From the NCBI GenBank assembly GCA_030603565.1, contig JAUVXM010000007.1:176-64175 (forward strand): DNA of 64,000 nucleotides. Reading direction: 5' to 3'. The notes under the pieces are model-generated. The model made no database searches, was not told the origin of the DNA, and worked only from the letters and a program-made list of their open reading frames with translations. The position numbers and the translations under genes are program-made. Below, one piece after another: positions 35,092 to 57,472 of the stretch; position 1 is the first letter of the stretch; each line of letters starts with the position of its first letter. The stretch is from Candidatus Aminicenantes bacterium. Its GTDB lineage: Bacteria; Acidobacteriota; Aminicenantia; Aminicenantales; Aminicenantaceae.

Positions 35092-35100
35092 CTTAGGAGA

Positions 35101-35448
35101 CTTAATTATTCACGAGTCGAGGGTGCTGAATATGAGGAAAAGCGGAAAATAGTAAATGGTAAATGGGAAAAACCGTGAAATGTGAATTGTAAAATGTGAA
35201 ATGTTATGGTAAAAGATTTGTATCTTATGAAATTCTGATGTGGCTGAAGCGACATTGAAGATTTAGCCTTCTGATGAAGTTTTTCGAGGAAATCCGACGC
35301 AGTCGGACGCTGAGTATGTTTGACCCACGGACGGGGGGAGTTACGCAGGCGCCGAGAAAAACGAAGAAGAATGGCGTTAAAAATCTGAAGCGAGCGCAAG
35401 CCATACCTGAATTTCATTCATATCGACATTTTTTATGAATAGTTAAGG
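35101..35448. repeat. Composite intergenic repeat block: truncated A-core end (35101-35122, minus orientation), family E (35130-35215), family C (35379-35417), right TIR (35422-35448) abutting the gcvH RBS
   Basis: CTTAATTATTCACGAGTCGAGG; GGAAAATAGTAAATGGTAAATGGG...GTGAAATGTGAATTGTAAAATGTGAAATG; AAAAATCTGAAGCGAGCGCAAGCCATACCTGAATTTCAT; ATCGACATTTTTTATGAATAGTTAAGG. Confidence 0.8.
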
Positions 35449-35459
35449 AGGAGGTAAAT

Positions 35460-35846
35460 ATGTATCCGGAAGACTATTATTATACGAAGGACCACGAATG
35501 GATTAAGATTGAAGGTAATAAAGCCACGGTAGGAGTCACTGATTTTGCCCAGAAACAAATGGGAGATGTTGTCTATGTTGAACTCCCGGAAATCGGAACA
35601 AAACTTAAGTTTCATAAATCCTTTGGTGTAATCGAATCAGTTAAAGCTGTATCCGATGTTTATGCACCTGTTTCCGGAGAAGTAACGGAAGTGAATGAGG
35701 ATTTGAATGATGCTCCTGAAATTCTAAATGAAGACCCCCATAAAAAGGGCTGGGTAATCAAGTTAAATATAGAAGATAAAGCTGAACTCGAGGAACTTAT
35801 GTCTTTGTCAGACTATGAGAAATTCTTAGAGGGATTGGAAGATTGA
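35460..35846 (+). CDS. gcvH: Glycine cleavage system H protein (lipoyl carrier)
   Basis: Lipoyl-lysine motif ESVKAVSD; 128 aa. Confidence 0.92.
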   Translation: MYPEDYYYTKDHEWIKIEGNKATVGVTDFAQKQMGDVVYVELPEIGTKLKFHKSFGVIESVKAVSDVYAPVSGEVTEVNEDLNDAPEILNEDPHKKGWVIKLNIEDKAELEELMSLSDYEKFLEGLED

Positions 35847-35850
35847 GAGA

Positions 35851-37200: not shown

Positions 37201-37207
37201 GGGATAT

Positions 37208-38662
37208 ATGATGATAAGAGAACCTTTAATATTTGACATAAGTGGTACGGAAAAAAAGGCCTTTTCTATGCCAGAATTGGATGTCCCTGAAAGAAAAGAT
37301 TTACTTAAGGATATTCCCTCTCGGGAGGAAATAGAAGATTTTCCCCAGATTTCTGAAATAGAAATAGTACGGCATTTTACTCGCCTTTCCAAAACTAATT
37401 ATTGTATAGACGAGGGCTTTTATCCTCTGGGATCATGTACGATGAAGTATAATCCCAAGGTAAATGAAAAAGTGGCTGCTCTGGACGGATTCACATCTTC
37501 ACATCCTTATGCTGCGCTTGATGTAAATCAAGGTAATTTAGAAGTTTTGAAAACTACAGAAAAGCTTTTGCAGGAAATAACGGGAATGGATGCATTTACG
37601 CTGCAGCCCTCAGCCGGAGCTCAAGGGGAGTCGGTCGGGATGATGTTAATTCGGGCCTGTCTGGAGGACAGGGGAGACCCGCGAAAGATAGTTTTGATCC
37701 CCGATTCTGCGCATGGGACCAATCCTTCAAGTGCTCATATCTGCGGATATCAGGTGCAGGAGGTAAAGTCTAATGAATCTGGTACTATAGATGTAGATGA
37801 CCTGGTAAAAATGTTGTCAGAAGAAGTTGCGGCAGTTATGATAACAAACCCAAATACTCTCGGGGTTTTTGAGAATGATATAAAAAGAATAGCAGATATC
37901 GTCCATGCTAAAGGTGGCTTCGTATATATGGATGGAGCAAACATGAATGCTCTTTTAGGTATTTGCCGCCCCGGTGACATGGGAGCAGATGTTATCCACC
38001 TTAATCTGCACAAAACATTTTCTACACCGCATGGAGGGGGAGGGCCTGGTTCTGGTCCGGTCGGTGTTAAGAAAAAGCTTGAGCCTTACCTGCCGGTCCC
38101 GCTTATTGAGCAGAATGAGGGGATTTATTCATTTAATTATGAACGTCCAAAAAGTATCGGGCGAGTAAGGGCTTTTTATGGAAATTTTCTCGTAGTAGTC
38201 AAAGCGCTGGCTTATATTTTATCTTTGGGGGCGGAAGGATTAAAAGAAGTTTCTGAAATAGCAGTTTTAAATGCCAATTATATCCGGAAAAAACTGGAAG
38301 GGATATACCATCTAAAATACAGTACACCTGCCTTGCATGAATGTGTGTTTTCAGATAAGTTTCAAAAAAAATATGGAGTCCAAAACCTTGATATAGCAAA
38401 ACGCCTTATTGACCTAAATATACATCCACCCACTATGTCTTTTCCTTTGATCGTTCATGGAGCCCTAATGATCGAGCCCACGGAAACAGAAAGCAAGCGT
38501 GACCTGGATATGTTTATAAATGCAATGCAGCAAATTGCTGAAGAGGCCCGGGAGGATCCTAAAATATTAAAATCAGCTCCTCACAAATCCTATGTGCGAC
38601 GTCTGGATGAAACTTATGCTGCTAGAAATCCTATTTTGCGGTGGCAGCCGACCCAGGAATAG
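37208..38662 (+). CDS. gcvPB: Glycine dehydrogenase (decarboxylating) subunit 2
   Basis: PLP-lysine region NLHKTFSTPHGGGGPG characteristic of GcvPB. Confidence 0.9.
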   Translation: MMIREPLIFDISGTEKKAFSMPELDVPERKDLLKDIPSREEIEDFPQISEIEIVRHFTRLSKTNYCIDEGFYPLGSCTMKYNPKVNEKVAALDGFTSSHPYAALDVNQGNLEVLKTTEKLLQEITGMDAFTLQPSAGAQGESVGMMLIRACLEDRGDPRKIVLIPDSAHGTNPSSAHICGYQVQEVKSNESGTIDVDDLVKMLSEEVAAVMITNPNTLGVFENDIKRIADIVHAKGGFVYMDGANMNALLGICRPGDMGADVIHLNLHKTFSTPHGGGGPGSGPVGVKKKLEPYLPVPLIEQNEGIYSFNYERPKSIGRVRAFYGNFLVVVKALAYILSLGAEGLKEVSEIAVLNANYIRKKLEGIYHLKYSTPALHECVFSDKFQKKYGVQNLDIAKRLIDLNIHPPTMSFPLIVHGALMIEPTETESKRDLDMFINAMQQIAEEAREDPKILKSAPHKSYVRRLDETYAARNPILRWQPTQE

Positions 38663-38674
38663 GAAACAGAACAA

Positions 38675-39523
38675 ATGAGCATTCAGAATCTGATAATGAA
38701 TCTTCAAAAATACTGGACTGACCAGGGATGTTATCTGGCCCAATCCTATGATATGGAAGTAGGTGCAGGCACTATGACTCCGGATACTTTTTTCCGAGTA
38801 TTGGATAAAAAGCCATGGAGGGTAGCTTATGTACAACCCTCGCGGAGACCTACAGACGGTCGATATGGAGAAAACCCGCACAGAGTCCAGAAGCATTTTC
38901 AGTATCAAGTAATAATTAAGCCTTCTCCGTCTGATATTCAACAATTATTTATTCAGAGTCTGGCAACTCTTGGCATTGATTTGAAATATCATGACCTGCG
39001 GTTTGATGAGGATAACTGGGAATCTCCTACCATAGGAGCGTGGGGAGTAGGGTGGCAGGTCCTGCTTGATGGGTTGGAAATTACCCAATTTACATATTTC
39101 CAACAAGCCGGCGGAATCGAAACTTTTCCGGTTCCGGTTGAAATTACTTATGGACTGGAGAGATTGGAAATGTTTTTGGAGGGAAAAGATGATATTTATG
39201 ATCTGCAATGGTCTGATGATGTGAGCTACAGGGACTTGAGAATTGAAGAAGAAAGGGAATTTTCAGAATTCAACTTTAATCATGCCGACATCAAATCACT
39301 TCAAAAAAAGTTTTCTTTAACTTCCGAGGAAGCTGGAAAACTAATAGAAAAGAATTTGCTTTTTCCCGCATATGATATGTGTCTGAAGAGCTCTCATCTG
39401 TTTAATCTGCTTGATTCAAGAGGGGCGGTCGGTGTAACCGAGAGAGTTAAAAAAATTGCTCAGATAAGAAATTTAGTGACTAAAATTGCCCAGAAATACA
39501 CCTCCCGGGAGGGTTCTTACTGA
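38675..39523 (+). CDS. glyQ: Glycyl-tRNA synthetase alpha subunit
   Basis: MSIQNLIMNLQKYWTDQGCYLAQSYDMEVGAGTMTP... is highly conserved GlyQ sequence. Confidence 0.95.
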   Translation: MSIQNLIMNLQKYWTDQGCYLAQSYDMEVGAGTMTPDTFFRVLDKKPWRVAYVQPSRRPTDGRYGENPHRVQKHFQYQVIIKPSPSDIQQLFIQSLATLGIDLKYHDLRFDEDNWESPTIGAWGVGWQVLLDGLEITQFTYFQQAGGIETFPVPVEITYGLERLEMFLEGKDDIYDLQWSDDVSYRDLRIEEEREFSEFNFNHADIKSLQKKFSLTSEEAGKLIEKNLLFPAYDMCLKSSHLFNLLDSRGAVGVTERVKKIAQIRNLVTKIAQKYTSREGSY

Positions 39524-41610
39524 TGGAATTTGTCCTGGAAATTAATACTGAAGAGATGCCTTTACCGCATGTCAAAGCTGCTTTGCAACAATTAAAGAGA
39601 AATTTCGAAGATGAACTTGTCTCACAGGACTTGGTTGACAAGAAAAAAAGACCTGGAAAAATCGAGACATTTGGAACCTGTCGTAGGCTGATCGTATATG
39701 GTGATTTGATAGCCTGCCAGAGAAATAAAGAAGAAATAATTGTTGGTCCGCCAAAGTCTGTGGCATTTGCTCCAGATGGAAGCCCAAGTCCGGCTGTCAT
39801 GGGATTTGCCAGGTCCCAGGGAGTTAAGGTCGATAGCCTGGAGGTCGTCTCTAATAAAAAAGGGGATTATATTGCTGTAAAGAAAATTCAAAAAGGAAGG
39901 CCTGCTCAGGATGTGCTGCCTCAAGTAGTGCCGGACATTATCAATAGATTGAGTTTTCCAAAAATGATGCGTTGGGGTACGAATGATTTTAAATTTTCCC
40001 GCCCCATTAGGTATGTATTTTGTATTTTGGATGGGAAACCACTTTCTTTTAAGGTCAATGGAATTTCGACAATAAATTTTACAACAGGTCACAAGCTGTA
40101 CTTTCCCGCCTCTATAAAAGTAAAATCATTCCAAGAATACCGAAGACAGTTAAAGAAAAATAAAGTCCTTATCGAAGAGAAAACGAGGAAAGCCCGTATA
40201 ATGAATCATATAGAAAAAAAGCTGGAGCCCCTGGAGGCGCAATGTTACCCTGATGAAAAACTCCTGGATAAACTAGCTACCGATGTTGAATACCCTTATG
40301 TTTTTTTGGGGGCATTCCCTAAAAAATATTTGAAATTACCTATTGAGATATTAAGTACTGCCATGAGAGAGGGGCAAAATCTCCTTTCTGTTGTTAAGGG
40401 AAAGAAACAACTCCCTGTTTTTTTGGGAGTTACTGATGCCTGCAATGATGCAAAAGGATTTGTTAGCAAGGGAAACGAGAGGGTTTTAAAGGCGAGACTG
40501 GAAGATGCACGTTTTTTTTGGGAGCAGGATTCAAAAATACCGCTGAAAGAAAGAGCTGAGAATTTAAGCCAGATTGTTTTTCAGGAAAGGCTGGGAAGTT
40601 ATAAAGAAAAGAGTGAACGGATAAAAAAAATTGCCCTTTACTTAGTAAGCAAGCTGGACGCAGGCAAAAAAAAACAAGAGGTCAGAGAAGCAGCTGAGCT
40701 GTGTAAAGCTGACCTGCTTACAGAAATGGTAAGAGAGTTTCCTTCCCTGCAAGGGAAAGTGGGCGGAATTTATGCACGGAAAGAAAAATATCCCCTTGCT
40801 GTCTGGAAAGCTATATATGAACATTACCAACCAGCCAGCCTGGATGATCCTAGTCCGGCTTCTCTTACCGGGGCTATCTTGGCAGTTTGTGATAAGCTGG
40901 ATTCAATAGTAGGAGTTTTAGGCCTTGAAATTGAGATATCCGGTTCGAAGGACCCTTTTGGACTGCGCCGAAATGCCCAGGGTATATGCTCTATTGTGCT
41001 TGATAAAAAATTGGATTTTCCCTTTCCCCTGCTTCTGGATAAGGTCATTAAAGTATATGAGGATAACCTGAAAAAAAACAGAAGTGAGTTAAAAGAGATC
41101 TGTCTTGAATTTTTTAAGAACAGACTGGAGTATATTTTTAGCCACCTTGGATTTCGTTATGACCTGATAAAGGCAGTGCTGAGTTCAGGTGTTGACAATA
41201 TTTATAATATTTTTCTCAAGCTCAAAGCTTTGGACAGCCTTAAAGATAATTTAAAATTTAGGACATTGATCCTTACTGCCAAAAGAGTTAACAATATATT
41301 GAGGGGACAACCTAAGTATAAGGTAAATCAGGATCTGCTTATTGAGAAAGAAGAACGAGAGCTTTACACAACCTATTCTATTATCAGGGATAATGTTAGG
41401 CCTTTATTTTTAAGTGGAGATTTTTCAAAAGCTCAAAGAATTGTGCTTACAATAGGGTCATCAATAGATAATTTTTTTGATAATGTGCTGGTGATGGCTG
41501 AAGATAAAAGGATTAAGCGTAACCGCCTGGCATTACTTCAACAGGTCAGTAAGCTTTTCAGCCAAATCGCAAATTACTCTGAAGTTGTTATTGAAGGAGA
41601 GAAAGACTGA
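39523..41610 (+). CDS. glyS: Glycyl-tRNA synthetase beta subunit
   Basis: ~695 aa, GlyS-family N-terminus (MPLPHVKAALQQL), overlaps the glyQ stop (ATGA). Confidence 0.9.
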   Translation: MEFVLEINTEEMPLPHVKAALQQLKRNFEDELVSQDLVDKKKRPGKIETFGTCRRLIVYGDLIACQRNKEEIIVGPPKSVAFAPDGSPSPAVMGFARSQGVKVDSLEVVSNKKGDYIAVKKIQKGRPAQDVLPQVVPDIINRLSFPKMMRWGTNDFKFSRPIRYVFCILDGKPLSFKVNGISTINFTTGHKLYFPASIKVKSFQEYRRQLKKNKVLIEEKTRKARIMNHIEKKLEPLEAQCYPDEKLLDKLATDVEYPYVFLGAFPKKYLKLPIEILSTAMREGQNLLSVVKGKKQLPVFLGVTDACNDAKGFVSKGNERVLKARLEDARFFWEQDSKIPLKERAENLSQIVFQERLGSYKEKSERIKKIALYLVSKLDAGKKKQEVREAAELCKADLLTEMVREFPSLQGKVGGIYARKEKYPLAVWKAIYEHYQPASLDDPSPASLTGAILAVCDKLDSIVGVLGLEIEISGSKDPFGLRRNAQGICSIVLDKKLDFPFPLLLDKVIKVYEDNLKKNRSELKEICLEFFKNRLEYIFSHLGFRYDLIKAVLSSGVDNIYNIFLKLKALDSLKDNLKFRTLILTAKRVNNILRGQPKYKVNQDLLIEKEERELYTTYSIIRDNVRPLFLSGDFSKAQRIVLTIGSSIDNFFDNVLVMAEDKRIKRNRLALLQQVSKLFSQIANYSEVVIEGEKD

Positions 41611-41616
41611 TTATTG

Positions 41617-42066
41617 TCAACCGTCTATTTCAAAGTCGCCAGTGGCTGAGCTTTTTAAAGTCGATTTATCATCCGGGCTGAATTTTTGTTCCAGGGCGAT
41701 AATTTTCACTAGAGAGCCAGGGTAATTTTGTCCTTTTTTCTCACCATAGGGATTAAACTGAACCCCTATTTGGTATTTATAACTTTTTCCCGGGTTTGCT
41801 GCTGACCATCTAACTCTTCCTTCAAGAGCCATAGGAACTCTTTCACCAGGAACTGATATTTTCATATGGATTTTTGTGTTTATTTTAAAACTTTTCTGGG
41901 AGACAAAGCGCATACCTCCTCTGCTGATGTCCAAAATCGGGCAGAACTCTTCTCCATATTTTCCATGAAGAGCGGAGAGAAATTTATCTAATTTATAGCT
42001 GGTAGTTGCTCCCGGAATTTCGAACCGGAAACAAGTTCTTCTTTCTATACTATTATTTGACATCAA
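41617..42066 (-). CDS. PilZ-domain protein (c-di-GMP receptor)
   Basis: RRTCFR (RxxxR) and DISRGGMRF (D/NxSxxG) motifs. Confidence 0.7.
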   Translation of the reverse strand: MMSNNSIERRTCFRFEIPGATTSYKLDKFLSALHGKYGEEFCPILDISRGGMRFVSQKSFKINTKIHMKISVPGERVPMALEGRVRWSAANPGKSYKYQIGVQFNPYGEKKGQNYPGSLVKIIALEQKFSPDDKSTLKSSATGDFEIDG

Positions 42067-42207: not shown

Positions 42208-43875
42208 TTATCTTAGGGTCCCTTCGTATTTTGCGGTTAACTGGCGTTTACGGACGTCTTCAGGGGTATAGGAGGGTAGGAGTACAGGTGAGATGCGGTC
42301 AGTTCTGATTCCAGCGGATTTAAGCTCTTTTTCATATCTGTTTATATGGTCGAGGGACAATTTGCTCAGCTTTACTGACTTAATATATGTAGAAGCGTAT
42401 TTTCCGGCTCTGCGTCCGAAAACATTATAATCTAATACGGAATTGCCCATCAAACGATTGCGTCCGTGAACTCCTCCCGACGCTTCCCCGGCAACATAGA
42501 GGCCGGGAATATTGGATTCGCATTTTTCATTGATCTCGATTCCTCCATTCTGATAATGAAGAGAGGGGAATACAAGCATTGGTTCTTTTGTTATATCGAT
42601 ATCATAACGGATAAACTGACGAAGCATAGCCGGGAATTGTTTTTTGATATATCCTTCTCCTTGAAGCATCTCGATTAAGGGGGAGTCTAACCAGACTCCG
42701 ACCCTGCCTTGGGGTGTTTTAATACCGTTTTTTCTTTCTAAACATTCTCTAATAAAGGCAGAACTTTCTACATCTCTGGGTTCACGTGGGAAAACAAATA
42801 GCTCTCCGTCTTTGTTAATCGGTTGCCCCCCGGCTCCTCTGATTTTTTCTGTGATCAGGAATCCTGCGATCTGTTCCGGGAAAACTGAACCGGTTGGATG
42901 ATATTGCACAGAATCCATATAAAGAAGCTTTCCACCGGTCCGGTAAGCTATAACCAACCCGTCTCCGGTTGCGCCGTAATGGTTGGTTGTGTCAAAACCT
43001 CTTATATGTAGCCGTCCGTATCCGCCAGTAGTGATAATAGTGGCTTTTGCTCTTACAGTAAAATATTCTTCAGTTTCAAGATTATAGAGCACTCCTCCCG
43101 CACACTTTCCTTGCTCATCCAGGATTAATTCAACTGTGGGCATGAATTCAAGTACATTTATTTTGTTAGGATGGTTTCTCACTTCATCCATGAGAGTCCG
43201 CATAATGATAGCACCGGTATAATCGCGGGACGAAAGCATTCTTTTTCGTGAAGTACCTCCTCCATGTAAAACTTGCAGAGAGGTGTCATCCAATTTATCC
43301 CACACGACTCCAAGTTCTTCCAACCAATTAGCAACTTCGGGGCCCTCTTCAGTAAGAGGTCTAACAAGCTCAGGTTTATTGTCAAAGTGACCGCCTCCGA
43401 TTACATCCAGATAGTGACGGGTAGGTGGGTCCTGCTTTGTAATGGCAGCCTGCATGCCTCCCTGGGACATCATGGAATTTGCATCTCCCAGGCGTAGTTT
43501 GGTCGAGATAAGGCATTTAGCTCCATTTTTAATTGCGGTAATTGCAGCAGCTGATCCACCGCCACCGCCTCCGATAATGAGGATGTCTGTTTCATAATCT
43601 GGCTTTGAAAGGTCGAAAGATTCCGGTTTGATTCGGGAATGGGATTCCAGAATGTCAGCGACTTCAGTTGTGAGCATCTCTCCTTTGTTAGGGCCGATAT
43701 TTATCTTTCGCCTAGATTCCTTTTTATAATCAGGATGAAACTTATTAAGCACTTCATCCCTTTCTTTAGCGCTCATAGGCGGAAAAACAGGTTTTTCTGA
43801 TTTTGCAAGCTCAAATCGCTTATTGCGGGTTTGAATAACTTTGTTGAGTGATTTGCTCATATAGTCTGGATACAT
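42208..43875 (-). CDS. Fumarate reductase/succinate dehydrogenase-family flavoprotein subunit (FrdA/SdhA-like, soluble; ~90-aa N-terminal extension)
   Basis: FAD dinucleotide fold DILIIGGGGGGSAAAITA, HYGATGDGLVIAYRTGG and VQYHPTG active-site regions typical of FrdA/SdhA/L-aspartate-oxidase flavoproteins. Confidence 0.8.
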   Translation of the reverse strand: MYPDYMSKSLNKVIQTRNKRFELAKSEKPVFPPMSAKERDEVLNKFHPDYKKESRRKINIGPNKGEMLTTEVADILESHSRIKPESFDLSKPDYETDILIIGGGGGGSAAAITAIKNGAKCLISTKLRLGDANSMMSQGGMQAAITKQDPPTRHYLDVIGGGHFDNKPELVRPLTEEGPEVANWLEELGVVWDKLDDTSLQVLHGGGTSRKRMLSSRDYTGAIIMRTLMDEVRNHPNKINVLEFMPTVELILDEQGKCAGGVLYNLETEEYFTVRAKATIITTGGYGRLHIRGFDTTNHYGATGDGLVIAYRTGGKLLYMDSVQYHPTGSVFPEQIAGFLITEKIRGAGGQPINKDGELFVFPREPRDVESSAFIRECLERKNGIKTPQGRVGVWLDSPLIEMLQGEGYIKKQFPAMLRQFIRYDIDITKEPMLVFPSLHYQNGGIEINEKCESNIPGLYVAGEASGGVHGRNRLMGNSVLDYNVFGRRAGKYASTYIKSVKLSKLSLDHINRYEKELKSAGIRTDRISPVLLPSYTPEDVRKRQLTAKYEGTLR

Positions 43876-43887
43876 CTGAGACTCCTT

Positions 43888-44571
43888 TTATTTTTCCATA
43901 TCTCTTGCATAATATTGTTTTTCGAGGTCTTCTTTATTTGCAGTCATTAAATCGTTGTATTCTTTATCGTATATATTTTTTTTGATTTCTTTGATCCTTA
44001 TATTGAGTTCTTTACTTTTAGGGGCTAGGTATTTACCGTAAAGTCTTTTAGCAAGAATACCGACATTGAATTGAACGATTTCCGCTGGACAGCGGATGGC
44101 ACAGAGCCCGCAGCAAAGACAATCAAAGGAGAGGTCCATTACTGCTTCGATGTCACCCCGCTTGGCAGCTTGAATGTAATCCATAACTTCCAAGTCTTGA
44201 GGACAAGCCTTAGTGCAGGAATTGCAGGCAACACATCTAAAGACTTCTGGATAGAGTTTCTGGATCGTGGCAACATTGGGTTCGATCTTATTGATATCAT
44301 AGATGGATTTATGAGCCGGGATTGCAGGAAGTTGAGAAAGCCACATATCTTTTTCGACCATAGTAGTGCAAGCAAGGCCTGTATAGATCTTATAATCCCC
44401 AGGAAGCCTGTATACTGTAGCACAGGCACCACAAAATCCTTCTCGGCAGCCAGCGCCTCTTTTTATTTGATAGCCGGCATATTCCATTGCTCCCATAATG
44501 GTTGCCTCAGCTGGGACTTTATAGCCTTTTCCCATAATAAAGACGTTCACAAAATTTTCTTTATTTGCCAT
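43888..44571 (-). CDS. Succinate dehydrogenase/fumarate reductase iron-sulfur subunit-like (2Fe-2S plus two 4Fe-4S/3Fe-4S motifs)
   Basis: CREGFCGACA...C (Cx4Cx2C...C plant-type 2Fe-2S), CVACNSCTKACP and CLCCGLCAIRCP cluster motifs. Confidence 0.8.
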   Translation of the reverse strand: MANKENFVNVFIMGKGYKVPAEATIMGAMEYAGYQIKRGAGCREGFCGACATVYRLPGDYKIYTGLACTTMVEKDMWLSQLPAIPAHKSIYDINKIEPNVATIQKLYPEVFRCVACNSCTKACPQDLEVMDYIQAAKRGDIEAVMDLSFDCLCCGLCAIRCPAEIVQFNVGILAKRLYGKYLAPKSKELNIRIKEIKKNIYDKEYNDLMTANKEDLEKQYYARDMEK

Positions 44572-44586
44572 CTTGATGTCTCCTTA

Positions 44587-45411
44587 TTAATATTCTTGCG
44601 GTAATGTTTTGAGTTCAGCCCAGGAATAAACTGGACCATCCTTGCAGATATAATGCTTGCCGATATTACATCTTCCACACTTGCCGATTCCGCATTTCAT
44701 CTTATTTTCAACTGTAGTATAGATCTGTTTATCCTTAAATCCCAGTTCTTCAAGAGCTTTAATTACAAATTTTATCATAATAGGGGGGCCGCAGGTGATC
44801 GAGATAGAATTGTCAGGGGAAGGTTTTTTGTCTGTTACATTTTGCGGGACAAATCCGACATACTCTTTCCAGTCTTTTTCCTCAACATCAACTGAAAGGT
44901 GTACATTCATTTTTTTATTAAGTTTTTCCAGTTCCTCTTTAAATACTAAGTCCTTTGAGGTTCTTGCTCCATAGATAAGAGTGAGTTTACCATAATCCTC
45001 TTTTTTTTTGAGAGCAGTATGCAGCACAGACCAGATCGGAGCTAAACCAATGCCGCCGCCAATAAAGATGAGGTTTTTCCCTTTCCAATTTTCAATTGGG
45101 AAATTGTTGCCATAAGGGCCTCTTATGCCGATGATTTCCCCGACTTCTGTTTCGTGTAAAGCGGAGGTCACTCTCCCCATTTTTAAGATACTGAACTGGA
45201 GGAAATCTTTTTCAAGCGGGGATGAGGATATGGAGATCATAGATTCGCCTTTTCCTAAAACGGAAAGCATGGCACATTGTCCGCATTGGTGGGAAAAACC
45301 GTTTTTTTCGACGAATTGAGTTCTAAATGTTTTAATAGGCCTTAAGCCTGAGACTTCTTCTTTTATCTTGATTATTTTTGCCAGTTTTGGAATGTATATG
45401 TTTTCATTCAT
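44587..45411 (-). CDS. NAD(P)H-binding FAD oxidoreductase with C-terminal 2Fe-2S (FlxA / sulfhydrogenase gamma / AsrB / PyrK-like)
   Basis: GGGIGLAP NAD-binding, FAD-binding beta-barrel, C-terminal CGIGKCGRCNIGKHYIC. Confidence 0.8.
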   Translation of the reverse strand: MNENIYIPKLAKIIKIKEEVSGLRPIKTFRTQFVEKNGFSHQCGQCAMLSVLGKGESMISISSSPLEKDFLQFSILKMGRVTSALHETEVGEIIGIRGPYGNNFPIENWKGKNLIFIGGGIGLAPIWSVLHTALKKKEDYGKLTLIYGARTSKDLVFKEELEKLNKKMNVHLSVDVEEKDWKEYVGFVPQNVTDKKPSPDNSISITCGPPIMIKFVIKALEELGFKDKQIYTTVENKMKCGIGKCGRCNIGKHYICKDGPVYSWAELKTLPQEY

Positions 45412-46492
45412 AATCTCTCACCTTATTCAGAATTTCTATTATATCTATTCCCATGGGGCATAAAGAAATACACCTTCCGCAGCCTGTACATAGGTAATCC
45501 TGATAATTTTCGACGTGATACTGAAACTTATGAAGAATTCTCTGGCGTAATCTTGAGGCTTTGTCCGGCCTGGGATTGTGTCCTGAGGAATGCATGGTAA
45601 AATCCGGGAACTGACATGTATCCCAGGTCCTGACTCTTTTTCCTTTGAGGGGTAGGGTAGAAGTGAGTTCATCGGTTATGTCAAAACAATAACAGGTGGG
45701 GCAGAGGTAAGTGCATATACCGCAGCGGATACAGCTCATGGCTTCTTCATCCCAGAAAGGAGATTCAAACATGTCTTTAAGTTTGTCTGGGATGTTTTTA
45801 ATATCTTTTATTTCTCTTTTAATCTTTTTTTCAGATTCCCTCTGGATTTTTTCCAATTCTTTTTTATCTTTTGGTGAGGCAGGCTTGAAAAGATTTTCGG
45901 CTGCTTTGATAAGCTTCTCTCCCTTCTTAGTCAAGGAATCGATATGATATTTGTCACCCATGTCAGTCATAAGAATATCCAGGCCCTCTTTAGAATGAGG
46001 TGAACCACCGACTGATAGACAGAAACAATTAGGCGAAGGAGGAGGGTTGCAGGTCAGGCCGACCAGTATTGTCTGGTTTCTTCTACTCCAGTAATAGGGG
46101 TCCTTAGGTTCCTCTCCAAAAACCTTGTCTGTAAGAGTTATTGCTTTAGCGTCACAGGGCCTGACACCGAAAATAACAGCCGGTTGCTCTTCAGGGAGAA
46201 CTTCTTTAATTTGAGGTTTTCCTTCTTTCGAAGTATTAAATTGAAGGAAGATCTCTCTCTGAGGATAAGTTATTTTTTTTGGAGCCAGAACTGTGTTTAA
46301 GTATTCCAAGTTAATCTTATCCGGGTTTTGGATAACTTCATAACTCCACAGATTTTCCTGCTTTTCCGGAGCATAAACTGTATAAGATTGCAGGTTTTTT
46401 ACCCATGCGGGGAATGATTTTTTTGTCAGTATCTTTTCCATGGTCTCACCTGATAAAATCTTCTGGGTCTTCATCTTTGAAACTAGAAACAA
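45404..46492 (-). CDS. Iron-sulfur subunit of the FlxB / sulfhydrogenase beta / AsrA type (two 4Fe-4S)
   Basis: VRPCD motif, CIRCGICTYLCPTCYCF and CTGCGRCISLCPMG ferredoxin motifs. Confidence 0.75.
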   Translation of the reverse strand: MFLVSKMKTQKILSGETMEKILTKKSFPAWVKNLQSYTVYAPEKQENLWSYEVIQNPDKINLEYLNTVLAPKKITYPQREIFLQFNTSKEGKPQIKEVLPEEQPAVIFGVRPCDAKAITLTDKVFGEEPKDPYYWSRRNQTILVGLTCNPPPSPNCFCLSVGGSPHSKEGLDILMTDMGDKYHIDSLTKKGEKLIKAAENLFKPASPKDKKELEKIQRESEKKIKREIKDIKNIPDKLKDMFESPFWDEEAMSCIRCGICTYLCPTCYCFDITDELTSTLPLKGKRVRTWDTCQFPDFTMHSSGHNPRPDKASRLRQRILHKFQYHVENYQDYLCTGCGRCISLCPMGIDIIEILNKVRDYE

Positions 46493-47477
46493 GGGAAGGC
46501 TGCTCAGGATCTAAGCCGGCTTTATAGTCAAAAAGCTCTTTAGCAACTTTTTCCAGTTTTTTATTTAATAACCTTAAGGGGATGTCAACAGGACAAACTC
46601 GTTCACATTCGCTGCAATCTATACAACGGCCAGCTAAATGCATGGCTCTGACCAGATGATAGCCGAAGTTTTCTGAGGATTCCGGTGATTTTTCTATCCA
46701 TTTGATTTTTTGAGACTTTTCTTCTGCAGTAGTGTCGGCCGTGATCGCAAGGTTTATGCTGTCCACCACACACTCATCACAATAACACATTGGACAAACT
46801 GATCGGCAGGCATAACAACGAATACATTTACTTAATTGTTGTTGCCAGAAATCCCACTTTTTTTCCTGAGATAATGATTCAATTTGTTCCAGGGATTTAA
46901 ATGGTTCTTTGGGTGAGCGGTTGTTTCTATCTCCCCAAAATACATCGGAGATCACTGGGAAACTGGAAGTGCATTCCAGACATCTTTCAGCCAGGATTTC
47001 TTTGAGAGGAATTTTTATAGTTTTTTCTTTGGTTGAAATCACTATATTTTTTCTTTGGTCGAATTCGATTTTTTCCGGCTCTTCTCCTTTTAGTTTTTTG
47101 AAGATCTTCTTCTCGTCCAGGACTCCGAGATCTTCGCAGGAAAGCCCTATAATATAAACATCTTCCCGGGTTATAAATTTTTCCTGGAGTAATACATTTA
47201 TGGCCCGGCTGTCACAGCCTTTCACGAAAATACCAACTGGCCGTATATCCGGTTCTTTTTCTCTGGCTTTTTTTCTTTTTTCATCTAAGAGGAACTTAAC
47301 AAGATTTTGAAAACAAGTGGGATCCCAGATAAGTTTATCAATGTCTTCCGGCTTTTTCACAAAGGTGGGTGCGGCCATTAAGGCATTTGAGCTTTTAGCA
47401 TAACCTATGATATATTTTACTTTTCCTTCTTCCAGGATATTCTTAGCTTCTTTTTTTATTTCTTCCAGGTTCACCAT
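46446..47477 (-). CDS. 4Fe-4S dicluster protein, FlxC-like (FrhB/FdhB-family N-terminal domain)
   Basis: CIRCYACRSVCPMCYCDEC and CIDCSECERVCPVDIP; N-terminal region resembles the F420-hydrogenase-beta-like flavin/FeS scaffold. Confidence 0.55.
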   Translation of the reverse strand: MVNLEEIKKEAKNILEEGKVKYIIGYAKSSNALMAAPTFVKKPEDIDKLIWDPTCFQNLVKFLLDEKRKKAREKEPDIRPVGIFVKGCDSRAINVLLQEKFITREDVYIIGLSCEDLGVLDEKKIFKKLKGEEPEKIEFDQRKNIVISTKEKTIKIPLKEILAERCLECTSSFPVISDVFWGDRNNRSPKEPFKSLEQIESLSQEKKWDFWQQQLSKCIRCYACRSVCPMCYCDECVVDSINLAITADTTAEEKSQKIKWIEKSPESSENFGYHLVRAMHLAGRCIDCSECERVCPVDIPLRLLNKKLEKVAKELFDYKAGLDPEQPSLVSSFKDEDPEDFIR

Positions 47478-47899
47478 TATTTTTCTCTCCTCAGCTTTTT
47501 TTGGGGGCCGAGTGGTTTAAGCTCCTGAACAAAGTCTTGGATGATCTTTGTGTATTTTTTTCCTTCTGCGGCTGAGACCCAGGACATTTTAAATCTTTGT
47601 GGTTCCAGGCCGATATATTCAATAAGTTCTTTGACTAAGGCTATTCTTCGCCGGGCATAGAAGTTTCCTTTAATATAGTGGCAGTCTCCGGGATGACAGC
47701 CGGATACAAGTACTCCGTCAGCTCCTTTCTGGAATGCATTGAAGATATATAAGGGGGATACACTACCTGAGCACATAACCGTGATCGGAACTACATTGGG
47801 GGGATACTTCATACGGGAAACTCCTGCAAGGTCGCTTCCGGCTGATGAGCACCATTTGCACAGAAAAGCAATGATTTTGGGTTCGAATTCTTCAGCCAT
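47477..47899 (-). CDS. mvhD: MvhD/FlxD-like protein (methyl-viologen-reducing hydrogenase delta subunit family, 2Fe-2S)
   Basis: KIIAFLCKWCSSAGSD...VMCSGSVSP...SGCHPGDCHY matches the MvhD cysteine pattern. Confidence 0.85.
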   Translation of the reverse strand: MAEEFEPKIIAFLCKWCSSAGSDLAGVSRMKYPPNVVPITVMCSGSVSPLYIFNAFQKGADGVLVSGCHPGDCHYIKGNFYARRRIALVKELIEYIGLEPQRFKMSWVSAAEGKKYTKIIQDFVQELKPLGPQKKLRREK

Positions 47900-49857: not shown

Positions 49858-50414
49858 TTTCCTTTTTTTAGAGTTTCGAGGCCGTATTCGTATCCTTTAT
49901 CAAAGGCTTTTAAGTTTAATTCCAGGAAACGGTCGGGTACTAGACCGGGCACTCCTTTTTTCATAACTTCCGAGGTAGTGATTTTTGTTATAGCAGTAAA
50001 GAAGCCCATCATCACCAGGTTGGCGATGATCCGGTTCCCGAGTTCTTCGGCAAAACGAGTAGAAGGAACCGAATAAGATTTGATCTTTCCGCGGGGAGGT
50101 TTGGGTTTTACTAAATCCTGGTCGATGATGAGGAGGCCGTCATCTTTTAAGTCTGATTCATATTTATCGTATGCCTCCTGAGACATGGATACCAGGATTT
50201 CTGGAATGGTGATGTAGGGATAGAGGACTCGGTCGTCGGAAACAATAAGCTGAGAGCTGCAGGCGCTGCCTCTTGCTTCCGGGCCGAAGCTCTGGGTCAT
50301 AGTGGCAAATTTGTTTCCATAGAGCGAAAGAGCTTTGCCAGCAATAAGGGCACAGCGGATGATCCCTTGGCCTCCAAAACCGGAAAATCTAATCTCAGTC
50401 ATTGTTATCTCCAT
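49854..50414 (-). CDS. 2-oxoacid:ferredoxin oxidoreductase gamma subunit
   Basis: FSGFGGQGIIRCALIAGKA... typical POR/KOR/VOR gamma sequence. Confidence 0.85.
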   Translation of the reverse strand: MEITMTEIRFSGFGGQGIIRCALIAGKALSLYGNKFATMTQSFGPEARGSACSSQLIVSDDRVLYPYITIPEILVSMSQEAYDKYESDLKDDGLLIIDQDLVKPKPPRGKIKSYSVPSTRFAEELGNRIIANLVMMGFFTAITKITTSEVMKKGVPGLVPDRFLELNLKAFDKGYEYGLETLKKGK

Positions 50415-51267
50415 AAAGTTGGTATTTATCTCCTAGTACTGAAGAGAGATGTTTATTCATGGCATCCAGGAAAGTCGGTTTTTCCTTATCGACAAACTTT
50501 CCTACAATAAGTTTTCCCTGGTAGCTTATATCAAGTGTTCTTGTGTCTGCCCCATGCTGTATTTCTGACATGTCGTAATAATATTTAAGAAGGTTCAGGC
50601 CATCCCCAAGCCGGTTCCTCCGGGCATATAATGTAACACAAGGAGTTATGACTTCAATAAAAGAAAATCCACGTTTGTTTAAAGCTTCTTGGATAGATTT
50701 TGTGACACGCCTCAGATGAAGAGCTGTCCAGCGGGCAACATAGGTGGCACCGGCTGCTTCCGTAATATAGGGAAGGTTAAAGGCATTTTCAAAATTTCCA
50801 TAAGGAGCAGTGGATGCATTGGCATCTTTCGGTGTGGTTGCGGCAACTTGGCCTCCAGTCATAGCATAATTGAAGTTATTGACACAGATCACAACCAGAT
50901 CCATGTTCCTTCTTGCTGCATGGATCAGGTGGTTGCCGCCAATTCCGGAAATATCTCCATCACCGCTAAATACTACTACTTTTGTATCCGGTTTTGCCAG
51001 TTTCAGACCGGTTGCAAAGGGGATGGCACGTCCGTGAGTGGTGTGGAAGGAATCCAGTTTTGTGTAGCCGGCAACTCTTCCTGTACAACCTATACCGGAT
51101 ACAATCGCGATCTTATCAAGGTCGTATTTTTCTTTTCGTAAAGCTTCTGCAAATGATGTTACTACTGTTCCTATTCCGCAACCGGGGCACCAAATGTGCG
51201 GCATCCTGTCCATTCTTAAGATTTCTTCTATTGGGTTTTTTTCAGTATTTTGATCTTCTTTATTCAT
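50395..51267 (-). CDS. 2-oxoacid:ferredoxin oxidoreductase beta subunit (TPP-binding)
   Basis: WCPGCGIG...GDGD TPP-binding motif region (FSGDGDISGIGGNHL). Confidence 0.9.
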   Translation of the reverse strand: MNKEDQNTEKNPIEEILRMDRMPHIWCPGCGIGTVVTSFAEALRKEKYDLDKIAIVSGIGCTGRVAGYTKLDSFHTTHGRAIPFATGLKLAKPDTKVVVFSGDGDISGIGGNHLIHAARRNMDLVVICVNNFNYAMTGGQVAATTPKDANASTAPYGNFENAFNLPYITEAAGATYVARWTALHLRRVTKSIQEALNKRGFSFIEVITPCVTLYARRNRLGDGLNLLKYYYDMSEIQHGADTRTLDISYQGKLIVGKFVDKEKPTFLDAMNKHLSSVLGDKYQLYGDNND

Positions 51268-52429
51268 TTGGCTGCCTCCTTAATGGCGTTCAGGATATCT
51301 TCGGGGTTGTGGACCCAGCCGCCGTAATGGGGGACGGAAACAACCTTACATTTATCACCCACCACCCGCTCGGCTTCTAATACGACCTGTCCGGCATTTA
51401 TCTCAGGGAATACGATTGCTTTTACTTTACCAGCTAATTCTTTAATCCGTTTTTCAGGAAAGGGCCAGACTGTTTTAAGTTGCATTGTGCCGACTTTTAT
51501 TCCGGTTTTTTTTGCCTCTTGAACTGCTTTTATAGATACTCTCGAAGTTATTCCGTAAGACATGACTAAAATTTCGGCATTGTCAATATCAGTTTCTTTT
51601 AAATGGATGATTTTATCGGCATTGTCTTTGATTTTGTCGATAAGATGGCTTACACAAGTAGCCTGGCATTCAGCATTGAGAAGAGGGTATCCTCTTTCAT
51701 CCCGTGTCAGGCCGGTGGTATGAAAACGGTACCCGTCCCCTACCTTGACCATAAATGGGATGCCGTCCGTGTCATTTTTATAAGGCAAGTATTTGTTTTT
51801 AGGGCCTTTATACCATTTTCTTTCCACTAATTCGATTTCTTCTGCCGGAGGGATGACTACTTTTTCATGCATATGACCTATACATTCATCCGTCATAACA
51901 AAAACCGGGACCCGGTAAGTCTCAGACAGGTTAAATGCCTCAATGGTCAGGTCAAAACATTCCTGAGGCGAATCAGGGGAAAGAGCGATTATCTCATAAT
52001 CGCCGTGAGAGCCCCATCTGGCCTGCATCATATCCTGTTGTCCGGTCAGGGTAGGAAGTCCGGTCGAAGGACCTCCTCTCTGGACATTTGCAATAACAAG
52101 GGGAGTCTCCATCATGCAGGCTAGACCGATATTTTCCATCATGAGGGAAAAGCCTGGTCCGGAAGTAACTGTCATGGCTTTTTTGCCCCCCCACACAGCA
52201 CCAATTAGAGAAGCAATTGACCCCAGCTCATCCTCCATTTGAATAAAAACACCGCCTACATAAGGAATCCGTTCGGAAAACCTTTCCGCAGTTTCTGTTG
52301 AGGGAGTAATAGGATAGCCTCCGAAATAACGGCATCCAGCGGCAAGCCCTCCCTCAGCAAGGGCATAATCCCCATCCATAAAATGGGAACCTGTTAAAAC
52401 TCCTTTAGGATCTGCTTTCGACTTTTTCA
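51264..52429 (-). CDS. 2-oxoacid:ferredoxin oxidoreductase alpha subunit; probable GTG start at 52429 (the ORF-track ATG at 52490 would overlap the delta subunit by 86 nt)
   Basis: LTGSHFMDGDYALAEGGLAAGCRYFGGYPITPSTE matches the conserved KorA/PorA N-terminus. GTG-AAA-AAG (VKKSK...) overlaps the last 8 codons of the delta gene. Confidence 0.85.
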
Positions 52430-52680
52430 CCTTGGTCCTCCTCATTCTTAATGGTAACAAATATGGCAAATTCTGGACAAATTGTCTCACAGAGCTGACA
52501 GTAGCAGCATTCGTCCTCGTTTTTTACTATGGGTGGATGATATCCTTTAACATTAAATTCTTCGGATAGCTCCAGGACATCCCGCGGACAATACTCTACA
52601 CAAAATCCACATCCTTTGCACTGGTCCTTCGAGATGTGGATCTTGCCTTTTGTTGGTTTCAAATTTCCAAAATAAGTCAT
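52405..52680 (-). CDS. 2-oxoacid:ferredoxin oxidoreductase delta subunit (2x4Fe-4S ferredoxin)
   Basis: CKGCGFCVEYCP and CCYCQLCETICP. Confidence 0.85.
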   Translation of the reverse strand: MTYFGNLKPTKGKIHISKDQCKGCGFCVEYCPRDVLELSEEFNVKGYHPPIVKNEDECCYCQLCETICPEFAIFVTIKNEEDQGEKVESRS

Positions 52681-53614: not shown

Positions 53615-54022
53615 TTATGATGTGAATTTTCTAAAATTGCTGATTAATGCTATTGGAGGCACATCTCCTCTCTCAGAATCAGAAAGTTCTTCTACGTTTA
53701 CATGGTCTTCTCGTTTACGCAGTAATATCTGCCTGACTGCTTCTATAGCTTCTGCAATGTTTATGCCCTTGGGGCAGCGGACATTGCAGGTCATGCACGA
53801 TGCGCAGATCCAGATGGAGTTTGATTTCAATAATTCTTCCTTTAAGCCAAGTTGAGCAAAGCGGATGATCTGGTTGGGCAGTATATCCATTTGAGATACA
53901 GCAGGACAGCCTGCGGAACATTTTCCACACTGATAGCAGGCGAGAAGGTTTTGGCCGCTTAATTCTTCGACTTTGGCTACGAAAGGACTTCTGATCTTAT
54001 GGCGGGAGATATTAGTTCGCAT
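53615..54022 (-). CDS. hdrC: Heterodisulfide reductase subunit C-like (2x4Fe-4S)
   Basis: CYQCGKCSAGCP and CASCMTCNVRCP. Confidence 0.85.
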   Translation of the reverse strand: MRTNISRHKIRSPFVAKVEELSGQNLLACYQCGKCSAGCPAVSQMDILPNQIIRFAQLGLKEELLKSNSIWICASCMTCNVRCPKGINIAEAIEAVRQILLRKREDHVNVEELSDSERGDVPPIALISNFRKFTS

Positions 54023-57443: not shown

Positions 57444-57472
57444 TTGAATTTTAATGCCATTGATAATATGGG

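Follow-up and report, generated by a model that had tools for sequence, protein, structure and literature searches.

A stretch of 64,000 nucleotides from a Candidatus Aminicenantes bacterium (GenBank assembly GCA_030603565.1, contig JAUVXM010000007.1, positions 176 to 64,175; hereafter the window) carries on its minus strand an operon of thirteen genes, the last two of which, frdB and frdA, encode an FrdB-like iron-sulfur (Fe-S) protein and an FrdA-like flavoprotein. These two proteins are very probably the catalytic pair of a cytoplasmic fumarate reductase, and on balance, with modest confidence, we favour the reading that they form the high-potential arm of an electron-bifurcating NADH:fumarate/ferredoxin oxidoreductase feeding 2-oxoglutarate synthase (2-oxoglutarate:ferredoxin oxidoreductase, OGOR). 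Gene content, cofactor motifs, catalytic residues and conserved synteny are matters of direct observation, and the operon holds the gene set in compact and complete form, in a phylum, Aminicenantes, that is commonly regarded as fermentative.

Such an enzyme has been proposed before. In tubeworm symbionts and Thioflavicoccus mobilis, Rubin-Blum et al. (bioRxiv 2018; mSphere 2019, Rubin-Blum, Dubilier & Kleiner) found korABCD and tfrAB scattered among the flxABCD-hdrABC genes, and they suggested a complex in which electrons bifurcate to OGOR on one side and fumarate reductase on the other. For Pseudoclostridium thermosuccinogenes, whose 'succinate operon' combines Flx, Hdr and Frd genes, a bifurcating fumarate reductase was put forward by Koendjbiharie & van Kranenburg (2019 preprint; BMC Microbiol 2020). 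Clusters of the TFR-OGOR-Mvh-Hdr type are known from Cloacimonadota (Williams et al. 2021), and a 2026 survey restates the hypothesis. The window operon is thus the Aminicenantes member of a recognised, biochemically uncharacterised kind, and what our analysis contributes is a signature by which the catalytic pair can be recognised in sequence, the spread of the pair over both domains, the swapping of Flx and Mvh donor modules, natural FrdB::FrdA fusions, and a sister relation to the proteobacterial clusters of the reductive tricarboxylic acid (rTCA) cycle. Two questions are open for anaerobes that use the reductive TCA branch, namely how fumarate is reduced without a suitable quinol and where ferredoxin reducing enough for 2-oxoglutarate synthase comes from. 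If the favoured mechanism is true, one enzyme would answer both, the free-energy drop to fumarate lifting electrons from NADH or H2 to ferredoxin, and fumarate would join the short list of high-potential acceptors in Hdr-type bifurcation.

The FrdB-FrdA catalytic pair

The pair and its most distinctive segment lie as follows.

42208..43875, minus strand: frdA-like flavoprotein, 555 amino acids (aa), predicted to hold FAD non-covalently; PF00890 at residues 97-480
43588..43875, minus strand: family-specific N-terminal extension, codons 1-96 of the flavoprotein; two helices and a small beta unit
43888..44571, minus strand: frdB-like Fe-S subunit, [2Fe-2S] and two [4Fe-4S], 227 aa; Cys motifs align with E. 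coli FrdB

Judged by sequence, the pair belongs to a distinct and widespread family, marked by a conserved N-terminal extension, Asn at the covalent-FAD site, the lack of a C-terminal domain and a predicted 4Fe-4S third cluster. The Pfam FAD_binding_2 match of the flavoprotein covers residues 97-480 (E 1e-72), and 96 residues precede the GxGxxG motif. This extension has no Pfam match and is absent from FrdA, SdhA, NadB and TfrA; it is kept end to end in the flavoprotein homologues, with H47, P48, D49 and G61 invariant and the motifs FHPDY and GxNxGE conserved across the family. In an AlphaFold2 model of the flavoprotein (79-row alignment, mean pLDDT 87.6, pTM 0.89) its 96 residues have pLDDT of 88-98 and form two helices plus a small beta unit. 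When that model was compared with the PDB by Foldseek, E. coli FrdA ranked first (1kf6_A, E 9e-33, 450 of 555 columns aligned) and NadB 34th, and the superposition on FrdA leaves about 100 residues, those of the extension, without a counterpart. At the other end of the chain, which stops about 75 residues past the FAD domain, there is no Pfam match to the Sdh/Frd C-terminal domain PF02910, and the ESRGAH motif region of that domain is not present in the flavoprotein alignment.

Profile comparisons place the flavoprotein near, and outside, the characterised families. Its best NCBIfam model is that of methanogen TfrA (NF004900), at 331.5 bits against a cut-off of 718, and the match spans only model positions 6-426 of 546; the same model gives 765 bits to P0188, a genuine TfrA representative. 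An actinobacterial Sdh/Frd model (274 bits), the generic SdhA/FrdA model (267) and the NadB equivalog TIGR00551 (250, cut-off of 452.75 not reached) follow. Among solved structures the order of sequence matches is M. smegmatis Sdh1 SdhA, then E. coli SdhA and FrdA, then NadB, and neither the 25 best NCBIfam matches nor the 54 PDB matches include an AprA. An earlier, sequence-only reading of this DNA had asked whether the closest homology might be to L-aspartate oxidase (NadB) or adenylylsulfate reductase (AprA), and such closeness was not found.

We aligned the catalytic site of the flavoprotein with those of E. coli FrdA, NadB, the genuine TfrA representative and family members. The E. coli FrdA residues H232, T244, E245, R248, R287, H355 and R390 correspond to H326, T342, E343, R346, R367, H440 and R474 in the window, all of them invariant in the family, and every fumarate-binding His and Arg is therefore in place. 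The covalent-FAD His44 of E. coli FrdA corresponds to Asn133, which is invariant in 79 family sequences. Mutagenesis of this His in FrdA and SdhA ties covalent FAD to succinate oxidation, and members of the Sdh/Frd family with non-covalent FAD act as fumarate reductases. Where NadB has Glu121, the window protein has Gly205; family members carry Gly or Ala at this position, FrdA and TfrA carry Phe, and the two NadBs aligned both have Glu. Glu121 is the catalytic base of NadB and sets L-aspartate oxidase apart from Sdh/Frd (PMC10249383).

The Fe-S protein is encoded directly upstream of the flavoprotein, with 12 nt between the two open reading frames (ORFs). It carries a [2Fe-2S] motif of the plant/SdhB type (C42-x4-C47-x2-C50-x17-C68) and two CxxCxxCxxxCP motifs; all three line up with E. 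coli FrdB, and the 12 cluster-ligand Cys are at least 98% conserved in 65 homologues. Val207 of E. coli FrdB is the reason for the 3Fe-4S third cluster of that protein. Since its position is occupied in the window by Cys154, giving the third motif all four Cys, this cluster is predicted to be 4Fe-4S rather than 3Fe-4S. On the TfrB model the Fe-S protein scores 35 bits (cut-off 385), matching only positions 19-186 of 488. Pfam finds no CCG domain in either protein of the pair, neither has a membrane anchor, and the operon encodes no membrane protein.

Full-length homologues at 53-94% identity are abundant, so the two are not chance ORFs. Natural FrdB::FrdA fusions of 709-737 aa occur (P0122, a 50%-identity representative, and P0271-P0274) and are direct evidence that both proteins work together. 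The join is between FrdB and the N-terminal extension of FrdA, so in the complex the extension must lie near the C-terminus of FrdB. The sequence-only reading had described the pair as soluble and anchorless, with an extension of about 90 residues before the GxGxxG, all the SdhA/FrdA active-site regions, and an SdhB-type 2Fe-2S motif with two further cluster motifs, and in all of this, as in the coordinates it gave for the pair, it proved accurate.

The operon and its relatives in other genomes

From 54022 down to 42208 the order of genes is hdrC-hdrB-korD-korA-korB-korG-hdrA-flxD-flxC-flxB-flxA-frdB-frdA, with gaps of at most 48 nt and several gene overlaps. The eleven genes ahead of the catalytic pair are these.

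53615..54022, minus strand: hdrC, two [4Fe-4S], first gene of the operon; Pfam Fer4_8/Fer4_17, NCBIfam CoB_CoM_SS_C 80.7 bits
52688..53566, minus strand: hdrB, two CCG domains (non-cubane [4Fe-4S] motifs); Pfam CCG twice, NCBIfam HdrB 187 bits
52405..52680, minus strand: korD, ferredoxin-type delta subunit with two [4Fe-4S], 91 aa; tblastn, 75-82% identity to KorD-like ORFs
51264..52490, minus strand: korA, 2-oxoacid:ferredoxin oxidoreductase alpha; NCBIfam PRK08659 549 bits (cut-off 411)
50395..51267, minus strand: korB, thiamine pyrophosphate-binding beta subunit; best NCBIfam model 2-oxoglutarate ferredoxin oxidoreductase beta, 240 bits
49854..50414, minus strand: korG, gamma subunit; NCBIfam 2-oxoacid:ferredoxin oxidoreductase gamma, 192 bits
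47902..49857, minus strand: hdrA, FAD/Fe-S, presumed bifurcating flavoprotein; NCBIfam HdrA2 839 bits, model positions 1-640
47477..47899, minus strand: flxD/mvhD, [2Fe-2S] connector; Pfam FlpD, E 4e-52
46446..47477, minus strand: flxC, FrhB-like Fe-S protein; Pfam FrhB_FdhB_C and Fer4
45404..46492, minus strand: flxB, AsrA/HydB-like Fe-S protein; Pfam Fer4_22, NCBIfam sulfhydrogenase beta 214 bits
44587..45411, minus strand: flxA, NAD(P)H-binding FAD/[2Fe-2S] protein, electron entry point; Pfam NAD_binding_1, FAD_binding_6 and DHODB_Fe-S_bind

All seven FlxABCD-HdrABC subunit types are present with their cofactor domains, at scores under the methanogen equivalog cut-offs, as expected for bacterial versions. 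HdrC aligns with the dicluster half of FrdB. HdrB, whose best PDB match is methanogen HdrB (7bkb_B, 163 bits), also reaches 166 bits on the MFR SdhE anchor model and keeps all ten Cys of its CCG motifs, which are at least 95% conserved in 57 homologues. FlxA matches hydrogenase gamma and AsrB models in NCBIfam, and FlxB has a PDB match in 9nez_B (193 bits) and probably starts at Met18, near 46441. korD, which was detected only by tblastn with KorD-like ORFs of related loci, starts 7 nt past the hdrB stop; korA probably starts after it, at ATG 52379, the mechanical ORF from GTG 52490 overlapping korD in another frame. KorA scores 373 bits on the 2-oxoglutarate synthase alpha model. A scan for consensus promoters and terminators returned sites no more frequently than in shuffled sequence and does not define the ends of the operon.

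The description of the pair as appended to an Hdr/Flx module, given by the sequence-only reading, fits insofar as frdB and frdA are the last two genes of the operon, and needs enlarging by hdrB, hdrC and korDABG, which had gone unmentioned. Likewise the absence of a CCG domain is borne out for the frdB-like gene, but the operon does encode a protein with two of them, HdrB. That electrons enter from the neighbouring Flx/Hdr proteins, as had been suggested, is supported by both the operon and its conserved synteny.

The nearest homologues of the flavoprotein are in metagenome-assembled genomes (MAGs) of Candidatus Aminicenantes, at 82-94% identity over all 555 aa. An exhaustive HMMER search of 50%-identity representatives with the flavoprotein returned a limited set of full-length relatives sharing the N-terminal extension, then proteins of about 400 aa without it, and, as the most distant tier, TfrA-like, Sdh-like and NadB proteins at 34-39% identity. 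We then surveyed 80 loci, one genome per species, with full-length flavoprotein matches at 53-84% identity; they are spread over more than 15 phyla of Bacteria and Archaea. The bacterial ones belong to Aminicenantes, Gallionella/Nitrosomonadales, Rhodomicrobiaceae, Ignavibacteria, Cloacimonadota, Marinimicrobia, WOR-3, Thermodesulfobacteriota/Deltaproteobacteria, Chloroflexota, Spirochaetota and Bacillota, and the archaeal ones to Thermoplasmata, Bathyarchaeota and Theionarchaea. With so many carriers, the family signature gives experimenters a clear sequence definition and a choice of candidate sources.

Window-type genes in these loci were counted by tblastn with the window proteins; the greedy ORF caller loses genes to antisense ORFs in GC-rich loci. 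frdB is present in all but one of the 80 loci and lies within 300 nt of frdA in 71 of the 78 that could be evaluated. HdrB is encoded in 56 loci, HdrC in 52, HdrA in 48, MvhD in 42, Kor (OGOR) proteins in 31 and Flx proteins in 24; the gene immediately upstream of frdB is most commonly hdrB (18 loci) or flxA (15), and only one locus holds two copies of HdrB. The other neighbours were clustered and their representatives scanned against Pfam, which showed recurrent genes for succinyl-CoA synthetase (beta in 15 loci, alpha in 12), class-I fumarase (alpha in 10, beta in 11), malic enzyme (8), KorD-type ferredoxin (14) and the large and small subunits of the [NiFe] hydrogenase MvhAG (13 and 12). 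No DsrC-like or other thiol-carrier gene recurs among the neighbours. Gene orders such as fumAB-hdrCBA-mvhD-flxCBA-frdBA-sucCD-korABG (L039 and L073) and, in a Thermoplasmata archaeon (L054), korDABG-hdrA-mvhD-mvhGA-hycI-hdrCB-frdBA illustrate these arrangements.

Two side observations concern the gene structure of these loci. In four loci of Cloacimonadota and Marinimicrobia (L019, L022, L026, L027) frdB and frdA are spaced by about 0.3-0.5 kb, with a short ORF between them in three. In five of Thermodesulfobacteriota/Deltaproteobacteria (L039, L045, L047, L071, L073) a second flavoprotein paralogue (31-33% identity) follows korABG, at about 17.3-20.5 kb; in four of them an HdrB-like CCG protein (28-29%) and an unlabelled gene go with it, and a separate enzyme of the SdhABE/Tfr type may be encoded in the same operon.

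The closest published counterpart is 'rTCA cluster 1' of Ca. Endoriftia, its relatives and Chromatiaceae, which consists of the same 13 gene families, with an internal order, hdrCB-korDABG-hdrA-flxDCBA, identical to that of the window, and for which the published model is the same as that proposed here, bifurcation to fumarate reductase and OGOR. The order in Table S1 of Rubin-Blum et al. is frdB frdA hdrC hdrB korD korA korB korC hdrA flxD flxC flxB flxA, so that frdBA stand at the 5' end there and at the 3' end of the operon in the window. The hosts also differ, an Aminicenantes bacterium as against sulfur-oxidising autotrophs, and the setting of ATP-citrate lyase (ACL), isocitrate dehydrogenase (IDH) and aconitase genes in rTCA cluster 1 is not matched among the window flanks scanned (28-42 and 54-64 kb). 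Our comparison was made through Chromatiaceae/Gammaproteobacteria proxies rather than the T. mobilis or Endoriftia sequences, namely an uncultured Thiodictyon (Chromatiaceae) contig and a gammaproteobacterial MAG (L081 and L082), both with the order frdBA-rbr-hdrCB-kor(D)ABG-hdrA-flxDCBA; in the MAG, ACL and aconitase genes adjoin the cluster. The rubrerythrin gene between frdA and hdrC in these proteobacterial clusters (L081 11722-12255; L082 3110-3649) has no equivalent in the window operon. The window and Thiodictyon proteins are 68% identical over 550 aa for FrdA and 60% over 221 aa for FrdB.

More generally, the nearest relatives of the Aminicenantes proteins are proteobacterial versions (L011, L081, L082, P0390-P0428) from Gallionella, Sulfuricellaceae, Rhodocyclaceae, Ca. 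Nitricoxidivorans, Thiodictyon and the gammaproteobacterial MAG, at about 70-75% identity and with a shared internal gene order, and a bootstrapped neighbor-joining tree makes the Aminicenantes and proteobacterial clades sisters, with support of 100/100. A published suggestion has the cluster reaching Gammaproteobacteria by horizontal transfer from some distant clade, and the sister relation of these clades, together with their common gene order, bears on that suggestion.

Proposed electron flow and competing explanations

In the mechanism that we favour, FrdB and FrdA would be the fumarate-reducing module of a cytoplasmic, quinone-independent enzyme built around an HdrABC core and a FlxABCD NADH-dehydrogenase module. 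NADH would be oxidised at FlxA and its electrons passed through FlxB, FlxC and FlxD to the FAD of HdrA, which would split each pair. The downhill electron would travel by way of HdrC and the non-cubane clusters of HdrB into FrdB, cross its three clusters (two [4Fe-4S], one [2Fe-2S]) and arrive at the FAD held non-covalently by FrdA, which would reduce fumarate to succinate; the uphill electron would go to ferredoxin (Fd), or straight to KorD. The net reaction would be 2 NADH + fumarate + 2 Fd(ox) -> 2 NAD+ + succinate + 2 Fd(red), and KorDABG, using the reduced ferredoxin, would carboxylate succinyl-CoA to 2-oxoglutarate, such that one operon would supply both redox steps of the reductive TCA branch. 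The sequence-only reading had offered an NADH/ferredoxin-dependent fumarate reductase; fumarate is indeed the most likely substrate, but ferredoxin figures in the favoured mechanism as a second acceptor and not as a donor.

We infer the physical association of the subunits, bifurcation, direction and stoichiometry, as we do everything beyond gene content, motifs and synteny, from several lines of argument. The neighbouring genes in related loci place the substrate of the flavoprotein between fumarase and succinyl-CoA synthetase, hence fumarate/succinate. Non-covalent FAD (Asn133) and the all-Cys third cluster favour the reductive direction, an argument that leans on the known His mutants of FrdA and SdhA and on FrdB V207C. 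The donor module is interchangeable, being FlxABC (NADH) in 24 loci and the [NiFe] hydrogenase MvhAG (H2) in 13, and the constancy of HdrA and MvhD while it varies is the pattern to be expected if the FAD of HdrA is a bifurcation hub, with fumarate in place of the heterodisulfide as high-potential acceptor. Since each cluster has a single HdrB and FrdB has no CCG domain, HdrA -> HdrC -> HdrB -> FrdB -> FrdA-FAD is the simplest wiring. The transfer of electrons from NADH to fumarate yields about -58 kJ/mol (table in PMC13147460), and by our own calculation that from NADH to ferredoxin at -440 mV costs about +23 kJ per two electrons; the former covers the latter, and the net reaction is thus exergonic.

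Several observations weigh against this mechanism. Thirteen of the 80 loci have no Hdr gene in the DNA examined, about eight of them with at least 9 kb upstream, and the frdBA pair can therefore work with partners other than Hdr; these loci still carry genes for ACL-like proteins, IDH, aconitase B, phosphoenolpyruvate carboxykinase (PEPCK) or malic enzyme. In a Dehalococcoidia locus (L076, 6955-9184) a LutA-like CCG protein and a LutB-like LUD/Fe-S protein are encoded directly upstream of frdBA in place of HdrCB, which suggests an alternative partner module. An AlphaFold2 model of fused FrdB and FrdA has pLDDT below 50 in its Fe-S half, which only 7 alignment rows cover, and gives no evidence of an interface. 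The co-expression data for the tubeworm symbiont cluster (Mitchell et al. 2024, PMC11636981) contain an exception, in that tfrAB of the Riftia symbionts differ in expression pattern from the rest of the cluster. The retention by HdrB of every Cys in both CCG motifs is equally compatible with genuine disulfide chemistry. KorA passes only the cut-off of a generic 2-oxoacid oxidoreductase, which does not establish specificity for 2-oxoglutarate, probable though that is. Finally, no enzyme assay or structure of any family member was found in the literature or among the PDB matches.

A bolder extension of the favoured mechanism makes all 13 proteins one soluble machine, in which the HdrB clusters would be a pure relay to FrdB and KorD would be docked on HdrA, and in which electron pairs from NADH would part directly towards fumarate and the active site of 2-oxoglutarate synthase, with neither free ferredoxin nor a thiol cofactor in between. 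We regard this joint claim as doubtful. If true, it would describe a fumarate-driven CO2-fixing supercomplex and a new acceptor class for Hdr bifurcation, widespread in bacteria and archaea, with NADH and H2 interchangeable.

Among mechanisms that dispense with bifurcation to ferredoxin, a plain NADH:fumarate reductase, in which FlxABCD, with or without an Hdr wire, would deliver electrons to FrdBA while KorDABG was merely co-regulated and no ferredoxin reduced, is unlikely. Its model is the five-subunit soluble NADH-dependent fumarate reductase of Hydrogenobacter thermophilus, a cytoplasmic enzyme of the rTCA cycle with FrdA/FrdB-type catalytic subunits (Miura et al. 2008, as summarised in PMC13147460), which makes the activity an established one; in the window, as in 15 related loci, flxA is the gene next upstream of frdB, and the NADH-fumarate reaction is strongly exergonic alone. 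Yet such an enzyme leaves no role for HdrA, the hallmark bifurcating subunit, present in 48 of the 80 loci, does not explain why Flx and MvhAG swap with HdrA and MvhD kept, and would waste about 58 kJ/mol in strict anaerobes. The Hydrogenobacter enzyme is reported to be simple and irreversible and to have other accessory subunits, FrdCDE (PMC13147460), and the comparison with the window operon goes by that description. It is quite unlikely, too, that two enzymes are linked by a thiol as in methanogens, Flx-HdrABC reducing a disulfide carrier and FrdBA with a CCG partner re-oxidising the thiol at the expense of fumarate, which would make the system a true thiol:fumarate reductase. TfrA is the best hidden Markov model match of the flavoprotein, published annotations name the orthologues tfrAB and consider a thiol route, and both CCG motifs of HdrB are complete; against this, FrdB has no CCG domain and 79 of the 80 clusters have no second HdrB, such that separate disulfide-reducing and thiol-oxidising CCG modules are not encoded, carrier genes of the DsrC or any other type do not recur among the neighbours, and the two proteins fall far short of the TfrA and TfrB equivalog cut-offs. 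Bacteria, moreover, are not known to make both CoM-SH and CoB-SH.

The same machinery might run in reverse as a confurcating succinate dehydrogenase, succinate and reduced ferredoxin (the latter from oxidation of 2-oxoglutarate by KorDABG) reducing NAD+ and giving a quinone-free oxidative stretch of the TCA cycle. In favour of this, bifurcating enzymes can in principle run both ways, most descriptions of Aminicenantes make them heterotrophs, and frdBA also occur in Syntrophobacterales and other syntroph-like lineages. We nevertheless hold reversal to be very unlikely: the covalent-FAD His is absent and Asn133 invariant, the reaction is endergonic at standard conditions, and neighbours encoding PEPCK, malic enzyme, ACL-like proteins and fumarase suit the reductive branch. 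A different substrate for the flavoprotein, either L-aspartate as in NadB or some other unsaturated acid, the latter corresponding to the reductase for another enoate that the sequence-only reading had allowed for, is highly improbable. Such a substrate would accord with the NadB score of 250 bits, not far behind the 331 for TfrA, with the 37-39% identity of the flavoprotein to true TfrA and NadB representatives alike, with Gly or Ala, unlike either family, at the NadB-Glu121/Frd-Phe position, and with the lack of a C-terminal domain across the family. NadB, however, has no Fe-S partner, and the flavoprotein is always paired, and sometimes fused, with an FrdB-like subunit; the NadB catalytic base is missing; and the pair stands in other genomes beside genes for TCA and associated enzymes (fumarase, succinyl-CoA synthetase, OGOR, malic enzyme, PEPCK, ACL-like proteins, IDH, aconitase) and not for NAD biosynthesis.

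Other known systems and the flanking genes

The 'succinate operon' of P. thermosuccinogenes resembles the window operon in combining seven Flx-Hdr genes with a two-gene fumarate reductase for which fumarate-ferredoxin coupling was proposed, a likeness drawn from the published description; it differs in having a fumarase and no OGOR, and its proposed role is fermentative succinate production. Among our own loci, two from Clostridia (L069, L075) have the order hdrBCA-mvhD-flxCBA-frdBA, and their flavoproteins are 54-55% identical to that of the window. FlxABCD-HdrABC of Desulfovibrio vulgaris (Ramos et al. 2015) comprises the same seven families as an NADH-oxidising, presumably bifurcating core. 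In that system, however, a DsrC disulfide is the proposed acceptor and there is a link to alcohol dehydrogenase, in place of the fumarate reductase and OGOR of the window.

Methanothermobacter TfrAB (Heim et al. 1998) is likewise soluble and anchorless, with one [2Fe-2S] and two [4Fe-4S] clusters in TfrB, and works with OGOR in the reductive branch to 2-oxoglutarate. TfrA, in contrast to the window flavoprotein, lacks an N-terminal extension and keeps a complete C-terminal domain (the window protein leaves model positions 426-546 unmatched), TfrB has two fused CCG domains where the CCG protein of the window is the separate HdrB, and no CoM/CoB is expected in the window bacterium. A true TfrAB was rejected on the missed equivalog cut-offs (331 against 718; 35 against 385) and the unfused CCG domain. 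With E. coli FrdABCD and the type E SdhABE the window pair shares the flavoprotein fold, the active site and the FrdB cluster motifs, and in type E enzymes the CCG protein SdhE, whose model HdrB matches, partners SdhB. Complex II differs by FrdC/D, the covalent-FAD His and PF02910, and the window pair by its additional N-terminal domain and a fourth Cys in its third cluster motif; nothing in the operon encodes or implies a link to quinones. An ordinary complex II was rejected for want of an anchor, the covalent-FAD His and the C-terminal domain, NadB on the absence of Glu121 and the obligate Fe-S partner, and AprA because it does not appear in the similarity rankings and the Fe-S partner carries a [2Fe-2S] domain of the SdhB type.

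No ATP-citrate lyase, IDH or aconitase is encoded in the flanks that were scanned (28-42 and 54-64 kb); the genes there are for glycine cleavage proteins, tRNA synthetases, MetH and cyclic di-GMP (c-di-GMP) signalling proteins. Upstream of hdrC, at 54178-58405 on the minus strand, lie genes for a polyamine aminopropyltransferase-domain protein, a radical SAM enzyme of the AmmeMemoRadiSam system and a DUF362 protein, all apparently unrelated to the operon; the first of these (54178-56331, 717 aa, polytopic) is the nearest membrane protein. On the other side a PilZ-domain gene (41617-42066, minus strand) begins 141 nt downstream of frdA, with a promoter-like site (42139-42111) between the two and a terminator-like hairpin (41528-41515) after the PilZ gene. 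A PilZ homologue follows frdA in five of eight Aminicenantes loci (L002-L004, L006 and L008; L030 has one about 5 kb off) and in none of the loci examined from other phyla; a c-di-GMP connection to the operon is possible. Genes for c-di-GMP signalling are abundant in the window (28094-29155, 60495-61397, 61409-63073 and 63145-63915) and encode a GAF-GGDEF protein, two response-regulator GGDEF proteins and a multi-PAS protein weakly matching sensor histidine kinases. The plus-strand genes gcvT, gcvH, gcvPA and gcvPB, followed by glyQ and glyS (34003-41610), converge on the PilZ/frdA end and provide an ordinary housekeeping context.

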